The translations under genes were made by a program, and so were the position numbers. The notes under the pieces were generated by a model. It saw only the letters and a list, made by a program, of their open reading frames with translations. It made no database searches and was not told the DNA's origin. A stretch of 64,000 bases of DNA from a virus, in the IMG/VR virus record IMGVR_UViG_3300044609_000721. One strand, 5' to 3'. This document shows positions 22,497 to 30,385 of this stretch, in pieces (within the stretch, counting starts at the first letter, position 1; each line of letters opens with the position of its first letter).

Positions 22497-25469
22497 TTAT
22501 GCGAATTTCCAAGAATATTGAATTAATGATGTAGTAGGATTTAGTGCTTCAATTGGTAGATTTCTACTTGGTCCTGGCGCTGGAAGTATTATTGGTTTTG
22601 CTGGTGATGTCTGAACCTGGGTCTGTGTTTGATTCTGTTGTTTAATTGCGCCTGCAGCGACCGAAGATGCCCCTGCAACAGCAGCGACGGCTGCTGCCTT
22701 GGTCTGACTCTTTAATTTATCCTTCTCCGCTTCTGCTGACGTTGTGGCGCTAGTTAGGGAAGGAGAAGATGCTGGTGCAGGTGATAGACCTAATGCTACA
22801 TTCAACTTATTAAATGTTTCAGCAAGTCCAGTAATACCTGCCATCTCATCTTCAGTTTCAACTGGTATTTGATTTTCAGTGTCTGTAGATGGTCCAGATC
22901 CTGGTTTTGCCCCCTGTATAGGTTTACCACCAATAGTAATGTCCTTCAATGCTCCACTAACAAGAGGATCTAATGATGTCCCCTTACCAAAATCTTGCTT
23001 TGTTCTGTGCTCAAAGTGTAGGTGAGGTCCAGTACCTATTCCAGTATTACCTAAGGTACCAATTTTAGATCCTGGAACTACTGTGTCTCCCCTCTTAACA
23101 AAAAATCCATCCAAATGAGCAAATCTAAGAATTTTTGATGGACCAACTTGCAAATCAACAGTATTTCCATATCCACTATAACTTCCAGCATAGAGAACCT
23201 TACCTCCAGTAATAGAAGTTATAGGAGTTCCTCTAGGTACTCCAGCGAGATCAATACCAGCGTGCCAACGACCCCATCTAGGACCATATTTTGACGTAAT
23301 AACCGCTCCACCTGAAGTAGCCGTTCTTAGTCCTTCATCACCTGATCCTTTCTCCTCTTTAACTTTTCCACCCTTAGCATATTGGGGAAGAGCGTATCCT
23401 CCAGACTTTGCTTGCTTAAATCTAGAAGAAGTAAGTCCCTTGTTATTCTTAGTTGCTGGAGTATCAAATGGAATTACAAATGCACTATCAGATGCTCCAC
23501 CTGCTGCTTTCTTAAATCCAACCCATTCAGTACCATGACCAATGAATGAAGTAGACATTCCACCATCAAGAGAGACGGGATATCCAGACATAGGACCAGA
23601 AATCCATCCACCCTTAGAAGCTTCTTGCTCTTTCTTTGCAGCATCAATTAACTTCTGCTTGTTCTTAATATCATCTTGTGTGATATATTTAAGGTCCAAT
23701 CCCTTTTGAGCAGCATTATTAACAAAGTATGCTCTTACTTGATTAAATGCTTTCTGTCTAATTGCTGCATTTTTGTTTCCAGAGATATCAATTTGATTTC
23801 CAAATGCCCAATCTTGAAATACCTCATAGTCACCATTGGTAGCATTGATTATTACTCTGTAAGGTTTTCCATCTGGTCCCTTAAATTTAACTTCGCCTCC
23901 CTTTCTGTCTCCTGCTTTAGAACTGAATTGAGAACCAGTTTGAGATGCTTGCCCAGCATCCATTGCTTTAGTTGCACCTTCTCTTCCTTGATCTGCACTT
24001 CCAGCACCTTGAGCACCAGCGGCTAGAGCAGATGCTGATGTATTATCTATTGAATCTGGTGGAGTTGCTGTTGGAGTTGTTGTACCCCCAATCTTATTGG
24101 CAATTACTTGCCCCGCAACCATCAAATCAGTAAGCAATCCAAGAACAGTATTATCACCCTTCCTGGTAAACTTCGTCTCTGTAGTTTTAACAGTCTTTCC
24201 TCTACCATACAGTTTCTGTAGTGAGGATTCTTTAGTCTTTCCTTTCTGTGGTTCAGCAGTTTTAGTCTGCCCAGATAATTTCTTAACTAAAGAAGAAGGA
24301 ACTCCAAAACTATTTGCAACTGGTGCAATAATATCGCTAAGAATTGGACTTAGTTTAGATGCAGGTCCACCAGTTTGTCCAACAACGCTTGAAATAGCAC
24401 CAATAATACCAGCACCAATTCCCTTGAATGGTGCCATGTATAGATCAGAAAGATTCTTCGCTTTCGCTTTATCTGGTTTATTGGTATCAGTACCTAAAGT
24501 AGATAGTGGTTTGATACCAGCATCACGAATTCTCTTCTTATTATCTAAAGGAATCTTGACTTCTGGACCCCTCTCACCCATTACTGCCTGGGTTGGTCTA
24601 GTTACGATTCCACCATCTTTCAAGTGAGGAGCCTCAGATTCACCCTGAGACATGCTTCCTCCGATAGCCGCAGCAGTTCCAACAGCAGCGGCGGCACCTA
24701 ATAGACGCCCTGCCTTTCCGCCTCCACGAATTGCTCCACCAGAAGACCTTCTACCTTTTAATAGTTTAGATGCTTGACTTACAGACTTCCAAATAGTTTG
24801 AAGTACAAACTTAACTCCACTTAGAAGTAACTTTGGGTTTTTGAGGAATGTGAATCCAAGAAGCAGAGATCCAAATCCAACAATAAACGTACCAAATCCC
24901 TTAAGTCTATCCCAGAACCCAAGATTGCTGTCAAGCATTGCTGCAAGACCATCAAGAGTTTTAGTAATATTGTCAGTTATGAATGTTTTCAGAAAATCAA
25001 ATACACCTACTATTGCTTCCCATATCTTAGATAATTTCTGCTGATTTGCTGGGTTAGCAATCCACCTCAGAACAGATTGGGTAATTACTGCTCTCATCAG
25101 GAACCCACCGAGCTCCATGAGTCCTTCAAAAAATCCTCCAATTGCAGGAAGTACTGCTTTAGTTACATTAGACTCTAATTTAGTAAGTCCGCTAGATCCT
25201 TTCTTATTCTTATCTGCCCTTTCCTTCTGAAATTGTTTCTTCTCATCCTCAAGTTCCTTAGACTTCAACTTAAGGTTTTTGATGAGAGTATCACGAATCT
25301 GAGTATTAATTACAATTGTAGAATTTAGGGTGGCGCCCATTCTGTTAAATGCTGTTGCAAATGCAGAATAAGAAGATGCTGCAACTCCACCCGATTTAGA
25401 TACCTTAGGTACCGTAACCATTTTATAGAATACTGTTTTTGGTTTGGAGGTAGGAATTGCGGATGGCAT
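22497..25469 (-). CDS. Tape-measure-like tail protein with M23 metallopeptidase domain
   Basis: Helical N-terminus; ITSKYGPRW...HAGIDLA...YGN.V...FAHL...GTGPHLHFE. Confidence 0.8.
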   Translation of the reverse strand: MPSAIPTSKPKTVFYKMVTVPKVSKSGGVAASSYSAFATAFNRMGATLNSTIVINTQIRDTLIKNLKLKSKELEDEKKQFQKERADKNKKGSSGLTKLESNVTKAVLPAIGGFFEGLMELGGFLMRAVITQSVLRWIANPANQQKLSKIWEAIVGVFDFLKTFITDNITKTLDGLAAMLDSNLGFWDRLKGFGTFIVGFGSLLLGFTFLKNPKLLLSGVKFVLQTIWKSVSQASKLLKGRRSSGGAIRGGGKAGRLLGAAAAVGTAAAIGGSMSQGESEAPHLKDGGIVTRPTQAVMGERGPEVKIPLDNKKRIRDAGIKPLSTLGTDTNKPDKAKAKNLSDLYMAPFKGIGAGIIGAISSVVGQTGGPASKLSPILSDIIAPVANSFGVPSSLVKKLSGQTKTAEPQKGKTKESSLQKLYGRGKTVKTTETKFTRKGDNTVLGLLTDLMVAGQVIANKIGGTTTPTATPPDSIDNTSASALAAGAQGAGSADQGREGATKAMDAGQASQTGSQFSSKAGDRKGGEVKFKGPDGKPYRVIINATNGDYEVFQDWAFGNQIDISGNKNAAIRQKAFNQVRAYFVNNAAQKGLDLKYITQDDIKNKQKLIDAAKKEQEASKGGWISGPMSGYPVSLDGGMSTSFIGHGTEWVGFKKAAGGASDSAFVIPFDTPATKNNKGLTSSRFKQAKSGGYALPQYAKGGKVKEEKGSGDEGLRTATSGGAVITSKYGPRWGRWHAGIDLAGVPRGTPITSITGGKVLYAGSYSGYGNTVDLQVGPSKILRFAHLDGFFVKRGDTVVPGSKIGTLGNTGIGTGPHLHFEHRTKQDFGKGTSLDPLVSGALKDITIGGKPIQGAKPGSGPSTDTENQIPVETEDEMAGITGLAETFNKLNVALGLSPAPASSPSLTSATTSAEAEKDKLKSQTKAAAVAAVAGASSVAAGAIKQQNQTQTQVQTSPAKPIILPAPGPSRNLPIEALNPTTSLIQYSWKFA

Positions 25470-25543
25470 ATATTAACCCTTTTGTAACATTTCTTAACAT
25501 TCCTTTTTCATGATTTTTGGCGGCGCTTCGGAACGCCCCCTCG

Positions 25544-28500
25544 TCAAAAACCGTTGGTAATTGGATTTTGCGATCTAATTACCTGTGGTGATTCATAAAT
25601 TATAGTTTGATTACTACCAATATTTAGTGGTATGGGAGCAACCAATACCGATGGTGAATCTTCAATAGTCTTAGTGATTTGACTAGATTGTGAAGATTGT
25701 GATAGTTGTGCTCCAGAAACATTTGGTTTACTCGGAGAGATTTTTGGTGCTGGTGGCAGAACTGCTGGTGCTGGTGGTTTTTCAGTTTGTACTGGTTTTA
25801 ATCCCAATGCAGAATTGAGTTTATCAAATACATCAACCAGATTCACCAATGCCTTCAATGGATCTTCTTCAACTTCCTGCGATGCTGATGGTGAACTAGT
25901 AGAATCCGTACTAGGAGTCATACTCGATGCATTCAACTTCTCAAAGTGCCATGGTTCAAACCCACCTTTAGCCCAATCAGGTAGTCCCCATCCATATGCA
26001 GAACCTTTATTATTGATCCAGTTTTGTGATTTTGCAGCACCAATATCAAGAGCAAGTCCCCAACCATGCTTAGATGTTCCAGGTTTTGCTGCCATACCTC
26101 TAGGTTTGGTATTAAACATATAGACCTGACCATCATAATCACGATAAGATCCAGTGATATCTGAAACTAGATCCACACCATCTTTTTTAGCAGCACCAAC
26201 CATTGATTTGAATGATTGTGCTACCTCACCCTTCCTTAATTTATGACCTCTCCCAACATCTTCTAAAGCAGAACTTGGTAGTTTCCCATTCTCATACTTA
26301 CCACCAGTTGCAAATTTAACCATTCCACCAATTGCTTCACCTTTCAATCTAGAAAGTTCACTTTTATCCTTTGGTGGTTTAGTTCCCTGCACAATCTGAT
26401 TTACATTCCTACCTACTCCAGGAGGAGGTACAGTACCCCCCTGTGCTTTTTTCACATTACTCTGCTTAACCTTAGATAGAGCATCTCTAATCGTACTAGG
26501 CTTCATGCTGCTGCTCTGACCCTTATACTTAAATCTACCATAAGCATCAGGCAAGGAAGCAAACTCATATGCCAACCCATCCATGAATGCTTCATCACTC
26601 ATCTGACCACTTAACCACCTTGATCCTCCACGGTTCTGCTCAATATTAACCTTAGATACAATTAGATCTTGATTTGCTGGACTGTACATATCTTTATCTG
26701 GATTCAATCCTGCTGCTTTTGCTCTACTTACGAGGTACTCAGGAAGTTGTTGGTACTTACCTACAGCACCAGTTGCTCTTCTAGCAACCTCAGCGATAGT
26801 CATCTTTGTAGCACCATTGAGAGTGGTACTTGGATACATCGCCTCATAATTACCCCCAGATTCCTTTCCAGCAATAAGATCAAGAAGGGCAGCCCAATCA
26901 CCAGTAGCACCTCCAGAAACTCCTCCAGAAGGAGCGCCACCTGCTGAAGCACCTCCTCCACCACCTGCAGAAAAATCTTTAGTCGTAAGCAGCGCAAAAA
27001 CACCCAAGACGTTTGCAAGAGCACCTCTTAGATTGTCCATAGTATTATTTGTTTTACCAACATTAAACGTTGGGTTTCTCTCACCAATATACTTGAGTTC
27101 TACGTCTTCAGACTCTTTAAGTTTATTCTGTAAGTTAGTCTTCGACTTAACTACGGACTTACTCAAACTATCTCCACCAGCGGCAGCAGAAACATTTCCC
27201 AACCCGAAAAGTTGCTTTGCTTTATTAATATCTCCCGATAGTAATTGCTTTGCAATTTCACCAGAAGAACCCATTCTCTCAAATGATGAGTTAACTGATG
27301 AAACAAGTGTTGCAGCAATATTACCAGACATTGCTGTTGATAATTTTGCAAGAGGAATAACTGCCTCTGGTCCTTTCTCACCAATCAATGCCTGAGTTGG
27401 TTTTGTTACTAATCCACCTTCAGCGAGTGCTGGTGGAGCGATCCAATCATAAAGTTTAGATGACAACCAATCTCCAATGATACCACCAACAATACCACCC
27501 GCTGCTGTACCTGCAACAGGTAGGATTGCGGATCCAACTGCAGCACCAATACCTGCACCAATACCAGATCCAATAGCAATTACAGCAGATCTAGCAATAG
27601 GTTCCTTGAAGATTAAAGTCCTAACAGCGAAGTCAATCAGAGGACCGATAATAGGAATTCTTCTGAAAATCTTTCCTACTGCTTTACCCAAAAACTTCCC
27701 ACTGGATCTAGAGGCCGCTTTACCTGCAGCACCACCTGCTGATGGTTTACCCGATGTTGGTTTTGTTTTACCTGATGTTGGTTTTGTTTTACCTGATGTA
27801 TCTACATCCGCACCGCCATCGGATTTAAGTAAGTCTAGGGTATTAAGAACATCTCCCAATAAGGAAAATGGATTTAGCAGATACCCTAGAGCCTTAAACC
27901 CAGCAATACCAATCAGAATCTGCCCAAGACCACCGAGAACTTGCTTGAATCTATCGAACCCCTGCTTGTCCCCAGTTCCAAATACAGATGATACCCCAGT
28001 GAGGAAATTATCTATTGACTTATATGCAACATTATAGATGAATCCGAAGATCTTTGCTGCACTATTAACAAAACTCTGAATGTTCTTACCATTCTTAGGA
28101 TCAGCAATCCACTTCAATATCCCTTGAGTTATAAGTGCTCTAGCAGCAAATGTAACAATGGATTCAAATGGTTTGAAGAATTCTTCCAACCATCCTAAAT
28201 TTTTTGATACTTCTTTCTTCCCTTCCTTTTCAACATTCGTAGATACGCTTGATTTTTTACCAAGACTTTCCTGCTTATCTTCCGATTGTTGATCTTTTCT
28301 ATATTGCTCTTTTCTCTTGGCAAATTGACCACTGCTCACCAGATACTGATTATCAGTCTGAATGATAGTGAGTATTTGCTTTTGTACTTTACCTAAAGAT
28401 TCTACTGAAGCCCCAATTCTATTCACAGATAAAAGAACACTACGGGCAGACTTAATACTGGACATAGATCCTCCAGTAATCTGCTTTCCACCCGCAATGA

Positions 28501-28579
28501 TTGCAGCACCCTGACGAGATCCAGAAGTAATCAAACTAGGATTTACAAACTTATATGGTTTGATAGTACTTGAAAACAT
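25544..28579 (-). CDS. Tape-measure-like tail protein with lysozyme-like domain and VanY/M15 D-Ala-D-Ala peptidase domain
   Basis: LLDLIAGKESGGNY...AVGKYQ; SYR...AAKPGTSKHGWGLALD...EPWHF. Confidence 0.8.
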   Translation of the reverse strand: MFSSTIKPYKFVNPSLITSGSRQGAAIIAGGKQITGGSMSSIKSARSVLLSVNRIGASVESLGKVQKQILTIIQTDNQYLVSSGQFAKRKEQYRKDQQSEDKQESLGKKSSVSTNVEKEGKKEVSKNLGWLEEFFKPFESIVTFAARALITQGILKWIADPKNGKNIQSFVNSAAKIFGFIYNVAYKSIDNFLTGVSSVFGTGDKQGFDRFKQVLGGLGQILIGIAGFKALGYLLNPFSLLGDVLNTLDLLKSDGGADVDTSGKTKPTSGKTKPTSGKPSAGGAAGKAASRSSGKFLGKAVGKIFRRIPIIGPLIDFAVRTLIFKEPIARSAVIAIGSGIGAGIGAAVGSAILPVAGTAAGGIVGGIIGDWLSSKLYDWIAPPALAEGGLVTKPTQALIGEKGPEAVIPLAKLSTAMSGNIAATLVSSVNSSFERMGSSGEIAKQLLSGDINKAKQLFGLGNVSAAAGGDSLSKSVVKSKTNLQNKLKESEDVELKYIGERNPTFNVGKTNNTMDNLRGALANVLGVFALLTTKDFSAGGGGGASAGGAPSGGVSGGATGDWAALLDLIAGKESGGNYEAMYPSTTLNGATKMTIAEVARRATGAVGKYQQLPEYLVSRAKAAGLNPDKDMYSPANQDLIVSKVNIEQNRGGSRWLSGQMSDEAFMDGLAYEFASLPDAYGRFKYKGQSSSMKPSTIRDALSKVKQSNVKKAQGGTVPPPGVGRNVNQIVQGTKPPKDKSELSRLKGEAIGGMVKFATGGKYENGKLPSSALEDVGRGHKLRKGEVAQSFKSMVGAAKKDGVDLVSDITGSYRDYDGQVYMFNTKPRGMAAKPGTSKHGWGLALDIGAAKSQNWINNKGSAYGWGLPDWAKGGFEPWHFEKLNASSMTPSTDSTSSPSASQEVEEDPLKALVNLVDVFDKLNSALGLKPVQTEKPPAPAVLPPAPKISPSKPNVSGAQLSQSSQSSQITKTIEDSPSVLVAPIPLNIGSNQTIIYESPQVIRSQNPITNGF
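27753..27794. repeat. Two exact 21-bp tandem repeats (SGKTKPT units) in a linker
   Basis: gatgttggttttgttttacct x2 plus partial copies. Confidence 0.8.
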
Positions 28580-28794
28580 TATAGACTCGACCTACCTTGT
28601 GATTGCTGTTGTTGTTTCTTATATTTCTCCTCTTCTTCCTTAAGATGACTGAGAAGTTTATCAACATAAAATTGTTTCTCCCAAGGTACCATGTTCTCTA
28701 GATCCGAGTAAGACCACTTATGATAGTGAATTAATGCAAAATTAGTTTCCAAGTGGTTCTCTAAACTAGAGTGTAATAGGGCTATTCGAAAAAA
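28579..28794 (-). CDS. gp51: gp51-like baseplate hub assembly protein, not in the ORF track; no ATG before the conserved part (frame FFRIALLHSSLENHLETNFALIHYHKWSYSDLENMVPWEKQFYVDKLL...)
   Basis: Manual translation; LEN..TNFAL..H.K.S...LENM.PWE motif of T4-like cyanophage gp51; stop TAA overlaps next ATG. Confidence 0.8.
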   Translation of the reverse strand, partial: FFRIALLHSSLENHLETNFALIHYHKWSYSDLENMVPWEKQFYVDKLLSHLKEEEEKYKKQQQQSQGRSSL

Positions 28795-29495
28795 CTTCCA
28801 AGTCCTTCCAGTTTGACAGTGCTTGTAACACCTGTTTTGGGATTCTCAACTTCAATTTCATGCTCTAATTTTGGCATAGTAGCAAAGAAATCCTGCAACT
28901 TCTGGAACTGATCGCTCTTCATACTTTCCAAGAACTCCATTAGTTCTTTCTTAGTATAAGTCTTGGCATCAGAAACATCATCACCTTCATAGATCTGACT
29001 CATACAAGTAATAGAAAGATCGAAAATATTATCAACTGTGATTTCATCTCCACTAAAATTCAATTTCACAAAAGTATCAAGTGAAGGATACTTCATGATA
29101 ATTCCAATGTTATCAGTGAGTTCAATCTTATTGCTATGCTTTTCTGGGAACTTTACATGAACAGATTCAAGATCAATTTCTACCTGCACTTGAGTTTCTT
29201 CATCATCTGGGCATGTGACCATGACTTTAGAAACTTCACCAATAGACTTAGAACGAATTCTAAGGAATACATATTCAATATCGAATGTGGATAGTTCTTC
29301 AACTCTAGATTTTAGATTGGTACAATTTTTGATAATGGTTTTAACTGCACTAATCATATCCTTCTCTTCACCCAATTGCATAGCAGTTAGAAGAAGTTTT
29401 TCTTCCTTCACAAGGAATGGACGATACTTAACAATTTCTTTTGACGATGGCAATTCCAATTCATATTCAGGAACCACTAATTTAGGTAAAGGCAT
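28782..29495 (-). CDS. gp26: Baseplate hub subunit gp26
   Basis: MPLPKL.VPEYELELPS...YRPFLVKEEK.LL...FD.EY.FL.IR.KS.GE...CP...LEGLGSFF. Confidence 0.9.
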   Translation of the reverse strand: MPLPKLVVPEYELELPSSKEIVKYRPFLVKEEKLLLTAMQLGEEKDMISAVKTIIKNCTNLKSRVEELSTFDIEYVFLRIRSKSIGEVSKVMVTCPDDEETQVQVEIDLESVHVKFPEKHSNKIELTDNIGIIMKYPSLDTFVKLNFSGDEITVDNIFDLSITCMSQIYEGDDVSDAKTYTKKELMEFLESMKSDQFQKLQDFFATMPKLEHEIEVENPKTGVTSTVKLEGLGSFFE

Positions 29496-29539
29496 AATTA
29501 CTCCTTAATATAGTTATCAGTAAAATTATTTAGTGCAGT

Positions 29540-30385
29540 TTAAATAGTGAGATTTCTTCCACTAGTATCTGTAAGAATTGTTTGTGTAAGTCCCTGTGGT
29601 CCTGGTCCTGCAGCAGTACTTGCTTGTTGAGCAGCAGCAGATGCAGCAACTCCTCTAGTTCCTAAAGATACTGCAACTTCTTCAATACCATCATTAGATG
29701 GTACATAGAATCTATACCTCTCAAAATAAAATGACACTTCCATCGTTGCATAATTTGCAGGTCCAGATTGGAGTTGCATATTGCTGATATTGAATGGAAA
29801 AGCATTCTTCATTGTCCACACACCTACACATTTATTCCACTTAGTTGTAGTGAAATTTCTTTGTGATGGATTTACCAATGACATTTCAGCATTTTGATCG
29901 TATGGATTTGATCCACCTCTTTCATACTTAAAGATGTCAATGTATGATGTGCAGATGTCATCATACCAAGATACTCTCTGACTTGCATCATTTGCAGAGT
30001 AATTCATCCACCTCTCAAAGAAGGTTCTTGTTTTATATGTACGTGGAATAATAAATTGAATACTAATTTCACTAAAAGTTGTAGAGGTTGGATATCTCCA
30101 CATAGTACCGACACTTTTTATCTCACCAGTTGTCAGTTGCCTGCTGGGAACTGTAACATCTGTGGCATAGTAGGTAAGTAATCTAGACTTATCAGTTCCA
30201 GGTCCAGAAGTATTTCCATCGTTGAAAAAATCATTAAACCAACTACTACTATTCATCACCTTAGGTTTAGTCCTAAAACGAACCCAATATAAGTTGTTGT
30301 ACGATGGTGCTTCCCTTCTAGCAAGGCTTAAGAAACCTTGAAAACTGTTTGCACCAGATAAACCTGTAACAGCTACATCTGCCAT
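29540..30385 (-). CDS. gp54: Baseplate tail-tube initiator (gp54/gp19-like fold)
   Basis: DVTVPSRQL...YP...FSEISIQF...FFERWM...FP.NIS...L...EVSFYF. Confidence 0.7.
   Translation of the reverse strand: MADVAVTGLSGANSFQGFLSLARREAPSYNNLYWVRFRTKPKVMNSSSWFNDFFNDGNTSGPGTDKSRLLTYYATDVTVPSRQLTTGEIKSVGTMWRYPTSTTFSEISIQFIIPRTYKTRTFFERWMNYSANDASQRVSWYDDICTSYIDIFKYERGGSNPYDQNAEMSLVNPSQRNFTTTKWNKCVGVWTMKNAFPFNISNMQLQSGPANYATMEVSFYFERYRFYVPSNDGIEEVAVSLGTRGVAASAAAQQASTAAGPGPQGLTQTILTDTSGRNLTI

Follow-up and report, generated by a model that had tools for sequence, protein, structure and literature searches.

Organization of the gene 26 junction

The window analyzed here is a stretch of 64,000 nucleotides (nt) of viral DNA from IMG/VR record IMGVR_UViG_3300044609_000721; the source record spans 83.8 kb and belongs to an uncultured T4-like cyanophage, with a completeness of 47% as given by CheckV. 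The analysis concerns the 3′ end of gene 26 on the minus strand, where a candidate programmed −1 frameshift would join the gene 26 product (gp26) to an overlapping gp51-like open reading frame (ORF), hereafter the −1 ORF. The closest isolate is Synechococcus phage S-CREM1, which shares 85% nucleotide identity with the window across the gene 26 stretch. The features of the junction are listed below by window coordinates, with protein lengths in amino acids (aa).

29501..29506, minus strand: Shine-Dalgarno (SD) sequence AAGGAG, 5 nt before the gene 26 ATG, read from the sequence
28782..29495, minus strand: gene 26, predicted short tail assembly chaperone (TAC-N), 237 aa, labelled "baseplate hub subunit" in relatives
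28803..28809, minus strand: SD-like purine run, candidate 5′ stimulator, GGAAGGA here and GAGGG or GGAGGG in most relatives
28788..28794, minus strand: slippery heptamer T TTT TTC, in X XXY YYZ phase with gene 26
28782..28784, minus strand: gene 26 stop codon TAG, one sense codon past the heptamer
28582..28787, minus strand: −1 frame extension (Gp51_C domain), which with the C at 28788 makes 69 codons, RIALLH...GRSSL
28579..28581, minus strand: TAA stop codon of the −1 ORF, which shares an A with the start codon of the next gene (TAATG)

Read on the minus strand, gene 26 ends in CTG GAA GGA CTT GGA AGT TTT TTC GAA TAG. The frame-0 codons at the heptamer, AGT TTT TTC, encode S234, F235 and F236, and the arrangement follows the X XXY YYZ rules for slippery heptamers set out in Sharma et al. 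2014 (PMC4066793). From position 28794 the −1 frame is open for 71 codons, with a translation that begins FFRIALLHSSLENHLETNFALIHYHKWSYSDLENMVPWEK; the same 71-codon ORF, read from the heptamer, is also given as FFRIALLHSSLENHLETNFALIHYHKW. Within it the first TTG is found at residue 15 and the first ATG at residue 35 of 71, 34 codons past the start of the heptamer. A shift at the heptamer would connect gp26 residues 1–236 to a further 69 residues, giving a predicted long product (TAC-NC) of 305 aa. The AAGGAG ahead of gene 26 indicates that genuine starts in this stretch have a strong ribosome-binding site.

An initial annotation, made from the sequence alone, had pointed to the heptamer at 28794–28788 just before the gene 26 stop, to the 71 open codons of gp51-like sequence in the −1 frame, and to the lack of any ATG before residue 35 of the −1 ORF, with the TTG at residue 15 as sole earlier candidate. 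The coordinates and phase of the heptamer were confirmed, as were the positions of the candidate starts, and the gp51-like nature of the −1 peptide was borne out by a match to phrog_634 (1.3e-22).

Conservation of the slippery heptamer

The junction was aligned across 93 loci, comprising the window, 12 GenBank phages (S-CREM1, S-H38, SynMITS9220M01, S-SZBM1, Syn19, S-RSM4, P-SSM3, P-SSM4, S-WAM1, P-RSM1, ACG-2014d and the Methylophilales phage Melnitz) and 80 IMG/VR contigs. The gp26 of S-CREM1 shared 93% identity with that of the window, the other GenBank phages about 50–60% and the IMG/VR contigs 49–60%. An in-phase T TTT TT[C/T] was present in 93 of the 93 loci, as T TTT TTC in all of them except Melnitz, which has T TTT TTT, and in every locus except Melnitz the heptamer was followed by one sense codon and then a stop. 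The codon before the heptamer was variable (AGT, TCT, GCT, AAT, GAT or GGT), with a third base that was invariably T. Among the 87 unique 142-nt segments of the alignment, the three frame-0 wobble positions of the heptamer had an entropy of 0, compared with 1.0–1.9 bits at neighboring wobble positions.

A single heptamer is by itself uninformative, as the two strands of the window together hold 13 copies of TTTTTTC, fewer than the 23 ± 5 of 100 dinucleotide-preserving shuffles. All 100 shuffles had at least 13 copies, so that the motif is if anything avoided, which fits the avoidance of slippery runs in coding sequence. In one IMG/VR relative (L050:1142-1154) the upstream tube-like gene also ends in a heptamer followed by one codon and a stop (GAT TTT TTC AAT TGA), and no more than 16 open codons follow it in the −1 frame; chance heptamers near stop codons thus do arise.

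The same signal was found further afield, as T TTT TTT in Sinorhizobium phage phiN3 and as T TTT TTC in Stenotrophomonas phage Ps15, Aeromonas phage AS-zj and a KVP40-like Vibrio phage. Two gp26 homologues of the Ackermannviridae, from Klebsiella phage Madison (L102:1457-1800) and Dickeya phage PP35 (L103:1460-1800), end in GAG ATT TTC ATT TAA, and there was no X XXY YYZ heptamer at the gp26 end in these two phages. A Gp51_C-like peptide (...DLLSYF...MPWHLD...) is nevertheless encoded in their −1 frame, within the roughly 500 nt that carry no annotation before the next gene, and the only room for a shift there would be a T_TTC tetramer or the adjoining codons.

An SD-like element upstream of the heptamer

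In addition to the heptamer, the alignment showed an SD-like run, formed by the codons of L-E-G, that ends about 8–10 nt upstream of it. Codon choice at this site differed from that in the rest of gene 26: the Glu codon was GAG in 59 of 85 sequences, compared with 30% GAG elsewhere in the gene, and the Gly codon was GGG in 22%, compared with 6% elsewhere. The duplex with the anti-SD sequence had a mean energy of −6.7 kcal/mol at the site and −1.2 kcal/mol in the rest of gene 26, and in 94% of 88 sequences pairing at the site was within the top 10% of the gene. By analogy with E. coli dnaX, this GAGG/GGAGG run probably helps the slip, and the nearby stop codon may perhaps stimulate it as well. 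The dnaX signal likewise combines an X XXY YYZ heptamer with an SD-like sequence about 10 nt upstream; it differs in needing a strong 3′ stem-loop, none being conserved in the cyanophage loci, and in that the dnaX shift shortens the protein, whereas the predicted gene 26 shift would lengthen its product.

These features also bear on transcriptional slippage, in which an additional U, inserted by RNA polymerase at the T6 run, would place gene 26 and Gp51_C in one frame in a fraction of the mRNAs. The homopolymeric nature of the site (T6 in most loci, T7 in phiN3 and T8 in Melnitz) would suit such a mechanism, and since a one-base insertion gives an identical protein, sequence comparison does not separate ribosomal from transcriptional slippage. 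The known bacterial sites of transcriptional slippage, however, are runs of about 8–9 or more, longer than T6; the X XXY YYZ phase of the run is kept throughout; and the SD-like element, at dnaX-like spacing, would have no role in polymerase slippage. On account of the short run and the SD-like element, we consider a transcriptional origin very unlikely.

Selection in the −1 frame and the absence of a conserved start

Across the 87 unique sequences, mean entropy by codon position was 0.73/0.45/1.45 ahead of the heptamer, in frame 0, and 0.90/0.58/1.30 after it, in frame −1. The heptamer is the exact point, ahead of the gene 26 stop, at which codon periodicity passes from frame 0 to frame −1, and the first freely varying wobble base of the −1 frame, at +8, still lies within gene 26 before its stop. 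The final gp26 codon, GNN, specifies A, G, E, V or D, and the overlapping −1 codon, CGN, is Arg in >90% of sequences. The stop of gene 26 is TAG in 81 of the 93 loci, a preference that follows from the letters fixed by the −1 codons NTA GCN (Ile, Val or Leu, then Ala). Selection in the −1 frame inside the end of gene 26 indicates that F-F-R-[I/V/L]-[A/G/S]-[L/M] is translated, though it lies upstream of all possible starts.

No start codon of the −1 ORF was conserved. Counted from the start of the heptamer, its first ATG was codon 5, 6 or 8 in 65 loci and one of codons 11–35 in the other 28, and in the candidate-start columns Met was exchanged for Leu, Ala, Val, Glu or Asp. The 26 sequences that have no early start showed the same switch of frame, and in the window a start at the first ATG would lose half of the conserved domain. 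No SD sequence preceded the candidate starts of the −1 ORF, though gene 26 has its AAGGAG, and a search between gene 26 and the −1 ORF gave neither a terminator nor a T4-type late promoter, while promoter-like signals did not exceed chance.

Database annotation of the −1 ORF was correspondingly uneven. Among the 12 GenBank records it was a separate coding sequence (CDS) in nine, with differing starts, and otherwise unannotated, namely in S-WAM1, P-RSM1 and ACG-2014d. In S-WAM1, the annotation of gene 26 itself begins at an internal start codon and gives 195 aa (L010:1619-2206), compared with homologues of about 237 aa, and its start was probably mis-called. A profile search of 1.84 billion proteins gave 1947 matches to the −1 peptide, nearly all of 46–100 aa, and the called starts of these short products were spread over profile positions 1–22 or lay 14 codons upstream of the heptamer. 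A word-indexed search for longer proteins containing the −1 peptide found none, which is a weak line of evidence. Longer proteins carrying the −1 peptide that were considered as natural in-frame fusions were rejected, since they came from indel-ridden long-read contigs or were chimeric repeats.

It could be proposed from such annotations that the gp51-like ORF stands alone as a small gene, translated from its own start or by termination-reinitiation, and yields a free peptide of 40–65 aa. The ATG found 5–8 codons after the heptamer, just beyond the gene 26 stop, in 65 of the 93 loci speaks for this proposal, as do the CDS features in nine of the 12 GenBank records and the hundreds of short proteins of this kind yielded by gene callers. 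The position of the start is not conserved, however, and an early ATG is missing from 28 loci, the window included. Selection in the −1 frame acts on the codons that separate the heptamer from the early ATGs (Arg, Ile/Val/Leu, Ala/Gly/Ser and Leu/Met) despite their overlap with gene 26, and the candidate starts, unlike that of gene 26, have no SD sequence ahead of them. A separate gene would also leave the invariant wobble bases of the heptamer without explanation, and in T4 the Gp51_C domain is fused to a gp26-like domain, as described below. We therefore regard a free-standing gp51-like gene as very improbable.

That the frame break is a homopolymer sequencing or assembly error in what is really one continuous gene is extremely improbable: two metagenome proteins (P0001 and P0011) do read through in one frame, but their source contigs are pilon-polished long-read assemblies that also break gene 26 into 2–4 pieces, a fragmentation that points to indel errors, and the same break is present in all 93 independent sequences, finished isolate genomes included. 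The ENA contigs L093 and L094, with names ending in _pilon, illustrate how homopolymer indel errors can mimic natural fusions in protein databases.

The initial annotation had proposed a −1 frameshift fusing gp26 to gp51, an alignment of the junctions as a means of checking it, and orthologues with a conserved gp51 start and no slippery site as evidence that would speak against it. In that alignment the heptamer was in phase in 93 of 93 loci with the −1 offset kept, and the starts of the gp51-like ORF varied; the reported lack of an SD sequence also held, none preceding the candidate starts. Taken together, the conservation of the heptamer, the frame switch and the absence of a conserved start strongly support the proposed fusion.

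Domain relationship with T4 gp51

The gp26 of the window matched the Pfam family PF12322 (T4_baseplate) at 1.1e-69 over the full profile and phrog_150 at 1.2e-78. The match of the −1 peptide to phrog_634, "baseplate hub assembly catalyst", covered profile positions 56–120, and in relatives the extension either carries no label or is listed as a small gene of its own, "gp51 / baseplate hub assembly catalyst". A Pfam-A scan of the −1 peptide gave no family with the Pfam-A version used, which was without the newer PF28602 model; precomputed Pfam labels on the products of such −1 ORFs are PF28602 Gp51_C. A sequence search of solved structures with gp26 and the −1 peptide profile gave nothing meaningful.

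In T4, genes 26 and 51 are divergent neighbors. Residues 1–201 of T4 gp51 (249 aa) matched PF12322 at 3.9e-52 over the full profile, and the whole protein matched phrog_150 at positions 13–280 of 282. Its last 49 residues matched phrog_634 at positions 57–103, inside the 56–120 covered by the window peptide, and an hhalign comparison of T4 gp51 residues 207–244 with the −1 peptide profile gave an E value of 5.5e-4. T4 gp51 thus consists of a gp26-like domain followed by Gp51_C, exactly as predicted for the product of the frameshift. A single PF12322 gene is present in each of the complete genomes examined (S-CREM1, Syn19, P-SSM4 and Melnitz), compared with two in T4. One PF12322 match was found in the window's record, which is 47% complete, and two separate full-length genes of the T4 kind were not seen there.

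Predicted fold of gp26 and neighboring genes

An AlphaFold2 model of gp26 had a mean predicted local distance difference test (pLDDT) score of 85.6 and was compared exhaustively (VIA-align) with 48,161 solved chains. The top match was the HK97 tail assembly chaperone 2ob9, aligned to model residues 1–88 with Z 7.4 (84 residues aligned, root-mean-square deviation 3.7). Ranks 2 and 3 for the same residues were 3fgx (Z 7.3) and YqbN 3klu (Z 7.0), all three being tail assembly chaperones, and the structure at rank 4 had a Z of 4.7. The clean separation from the next Z score and the shared family make the chaperone fold credible. The Gp51_C model was a small helical domain (pLDDT 78). T4 gp26 and gp51 are listed as hub assembly chaperones in Leiman et al. 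2010 (PMC3004832).

The genes that flank the junction in the window are as follows.

29540..30385, minus strand: upstream neighbor, tail-tube-fold protein of 281 aa, phrog_45 "tail tube" 3e-40
25544..28579, minus strand: downstream tape-measure-like gene, 1011 aa, M15/VanY peptidase domain and glycine zipper

The upstream 281-aa protein also showed weak matches to Phage_T4_gp19 and Phage_TTP_2 and is probably a gp54-type tube initiator; a tube-like upstream neighbor is likewise annotated in S-CREM1, phiN3, AS-zj and R10Z. The downstream 1011-aa protein matched PF02557 VanY (2e-9) and Gly-zipper, and the tape-measure PHROGs 167 (1.4e-12, residues 57–376) and 16823, at 1e-12 to 1e-13; BLASTP of this protein against T4 gp29 showed no similarity. 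Distant T4-like phages show this gene order as well, with the chaperone gene preceded by a tube-like gene and followed by a tape-measure-like one.

The chaperone gene of the window is in fact followed by two large consecutive genes (22497–28579, minus strand), the second encoding a protein of 990 aa with an M23 peptidase domain. Relatives label the 1011-aa and 990-aa genes as endolysin, metallopeptidase or hypothetical protein; both proteins match tape-measure PHROGs and neither is similar to T4 gp29.

Discussion

We consider it highly probable, judging from comparative sequence evidence, that the gene 26 −1 frameshift is real and of the lambda G/GT type, giving chaperones of 237 aa and 305 aa. 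This reading draws on the signal and its conservation, on frame-specific selection, on the absence of a conserved start, on the T4 gp51 architecture and on a chaperone-like predicted fold. From these we infer that slipping occurs, how frequent it may be, and that it is ribosomal rather than transcriptional in origin.

In the proposed mechanism, most ribosomes would read AGT TTT TTC GAA and stop at TAG, yielding the 237-aa TAC-N of about 27 kDa. A minority would slip back one base at the heptamer, where the two tRNA-Phe in the P and A sites, paired on UUU UUC, would re-pair on UUU UUU, after which translation would continue in the −1 frame as CGA AUA GCC. The slip would add the 69-residue helical Gp51_C and so produce the 305-aa TAC-NC of about 35 kDa. 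By analogy with lambda, the two forms would coat the tape measure, and the extra domain may link the tape-measure complex to hub or tube proteins during tail initiation; the binding partners suggested for the short and long forms rest on the same analogy.

Several points weigh against this interpretation. The SD-like element overlaps the conserved residues L-E-G-L, which is a confounder, and the sequences are related; selection at the nucleotide level is suggested by codon choice alone. The locus counts are likewise not phylogenetically independent. RNAalifold applied downstream of the heptamer in 87 sequences returned an energy of 0.0 and no consensus structure, and the 90 nt downstream in the window folded no better than shuffled sequences (z −0.27); with no conserved downstream structure, frameshift efficiency may be low. 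About 70% of relatives have an ATG 5–8 codons after the heptamer, and some independent initiation or termination-reinitiation could conceivably take place in those with an early ATG. The structural match to chaperones is moderate (Z about 7) and limited to gp26 residues 1–88, and a Foldseek search of the gp26 model against the PDB gave no match at E ≤ 0.001. The label "tape-measure-like" for the downstream gene denotes PHROG matches only. No peptide, reporter or ribosome-profiling data were found for these phages.

In phage lambda the tape measure is coated by G and GT, the latter of which brings in tube subunits through its additional domain. A conserved −1 frameshift in the tail assembly genes of long-tailed phages was reportedly described by Xu, Hendrix and Duda (Mol Cell 2004). 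The gene 26 junction shares with lambda G/GT two overlapping ORFs, which in lambda lie just upstream of the tape-measure gene and here just ahead of a gene whose tape-measure role is predicted, a heptamer near the end of the first ORF, a long form made of the short form plus a C-terminal domain, the lack of an obligatory downstream structure, and an N-terminus of chaperone fold, which is predicted here. It differs in the heptamer (G GGA AAG in lambda, T TTT TTC here) and in the size of gp26, which is about twice as long as lambda gpG, with extra domains after residue 88. There is also no detectable sequence similarity between the lambda proteins and gp26, and the cyanophage is a contractile-tailed T4-like phage whose proteins have historically been called baseplate hub components. 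The view of the initial annotation that gp26 and gp26-gp51 are the equivalent of lambda G/GT is backed by the T4 gp51 architecture, the fold matches and the tape-measure-like neighbor.

Within the T4-like phages, the gp26/gp51 pair of T4 has the same PF12322 domain and Gp51_C tail, and short and long forms with a common N-terminal part; it differs in being encoded by two divergently transcribed genes with two PF12322 copies, whereas the cyanophages have one gene and a −1 ORF. The concept of gp26 and gp51 as a short and a long chaperone appears to have been published already. Vladimirov et al. (Virology 2022;566:9-15) are cited in two papers (PMC10885494 and PMC12846349) for the identification of gp26 and gp51 as tail assembly chaperones of T4-like phages, in short and long form respectively. 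In the report on phage Adele (PMC12846349), Vladimirov, Gautam and Davidson 2022 is the reference for poly-T slippery sequences in T4-like TAC-N genes, and the PRFect paper (PMC10885494) cites the same work for the statement that frameshifting is replaced in some T4-like phages by a pair of genes, one short and one a long fusion. As the citing papers present it, the phenomenon is treated as published, and the present locus would be one more unannotated member. The remark in the initial annotation that such a frameshift was not known to be described in T4-like cyanophages therefore fails, as far as the citations of Vladimirov et al. 2022 for T4-like phages describe that work. Apart from papers citing it, the literature on gp26, gp51 and frameshifting yielded nothing specific.

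The main value of the present analysis lies in the correction of annotation and in the detail of the signal, with its upstream SD-like element and no downstream structure, and it is a confirmation and not a discovery. The correct annotation would be one gene with two products joined at the heptamer. In 12 of 12 GenBank relatives, the gp51-like ORF is either given an arbitrary separate start or omitted, and the same is true of hundreds of metagenome gene calls.

It is possible, if doubtful, that the cyanophage signal represents a distinct architecture, made up of UUUUUUC, an upstream SD-like GAGG/GGAGG and a stop one codon downstream, with no 3′ RNA structure. Should this be true, phages of marine picocyanobacteria, whose hosts show little SD-based initiation, would use the anti-SD tail mainly for recoding, and the heptamer-less relatives among the Ackermannviridae would suggest that the gene family has a second slip site, of tetramer type.

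For the T4-like phages more broadly, a frameshift in gene 26 would explain why the cyanophages seem to hold only a stub of gene 51, and would make the two-gene solution of T4 the exception among its relatives. It would also tie the T4 "hub assembly catalyst" gp51 to the universal pair of short and long tail chaperones.

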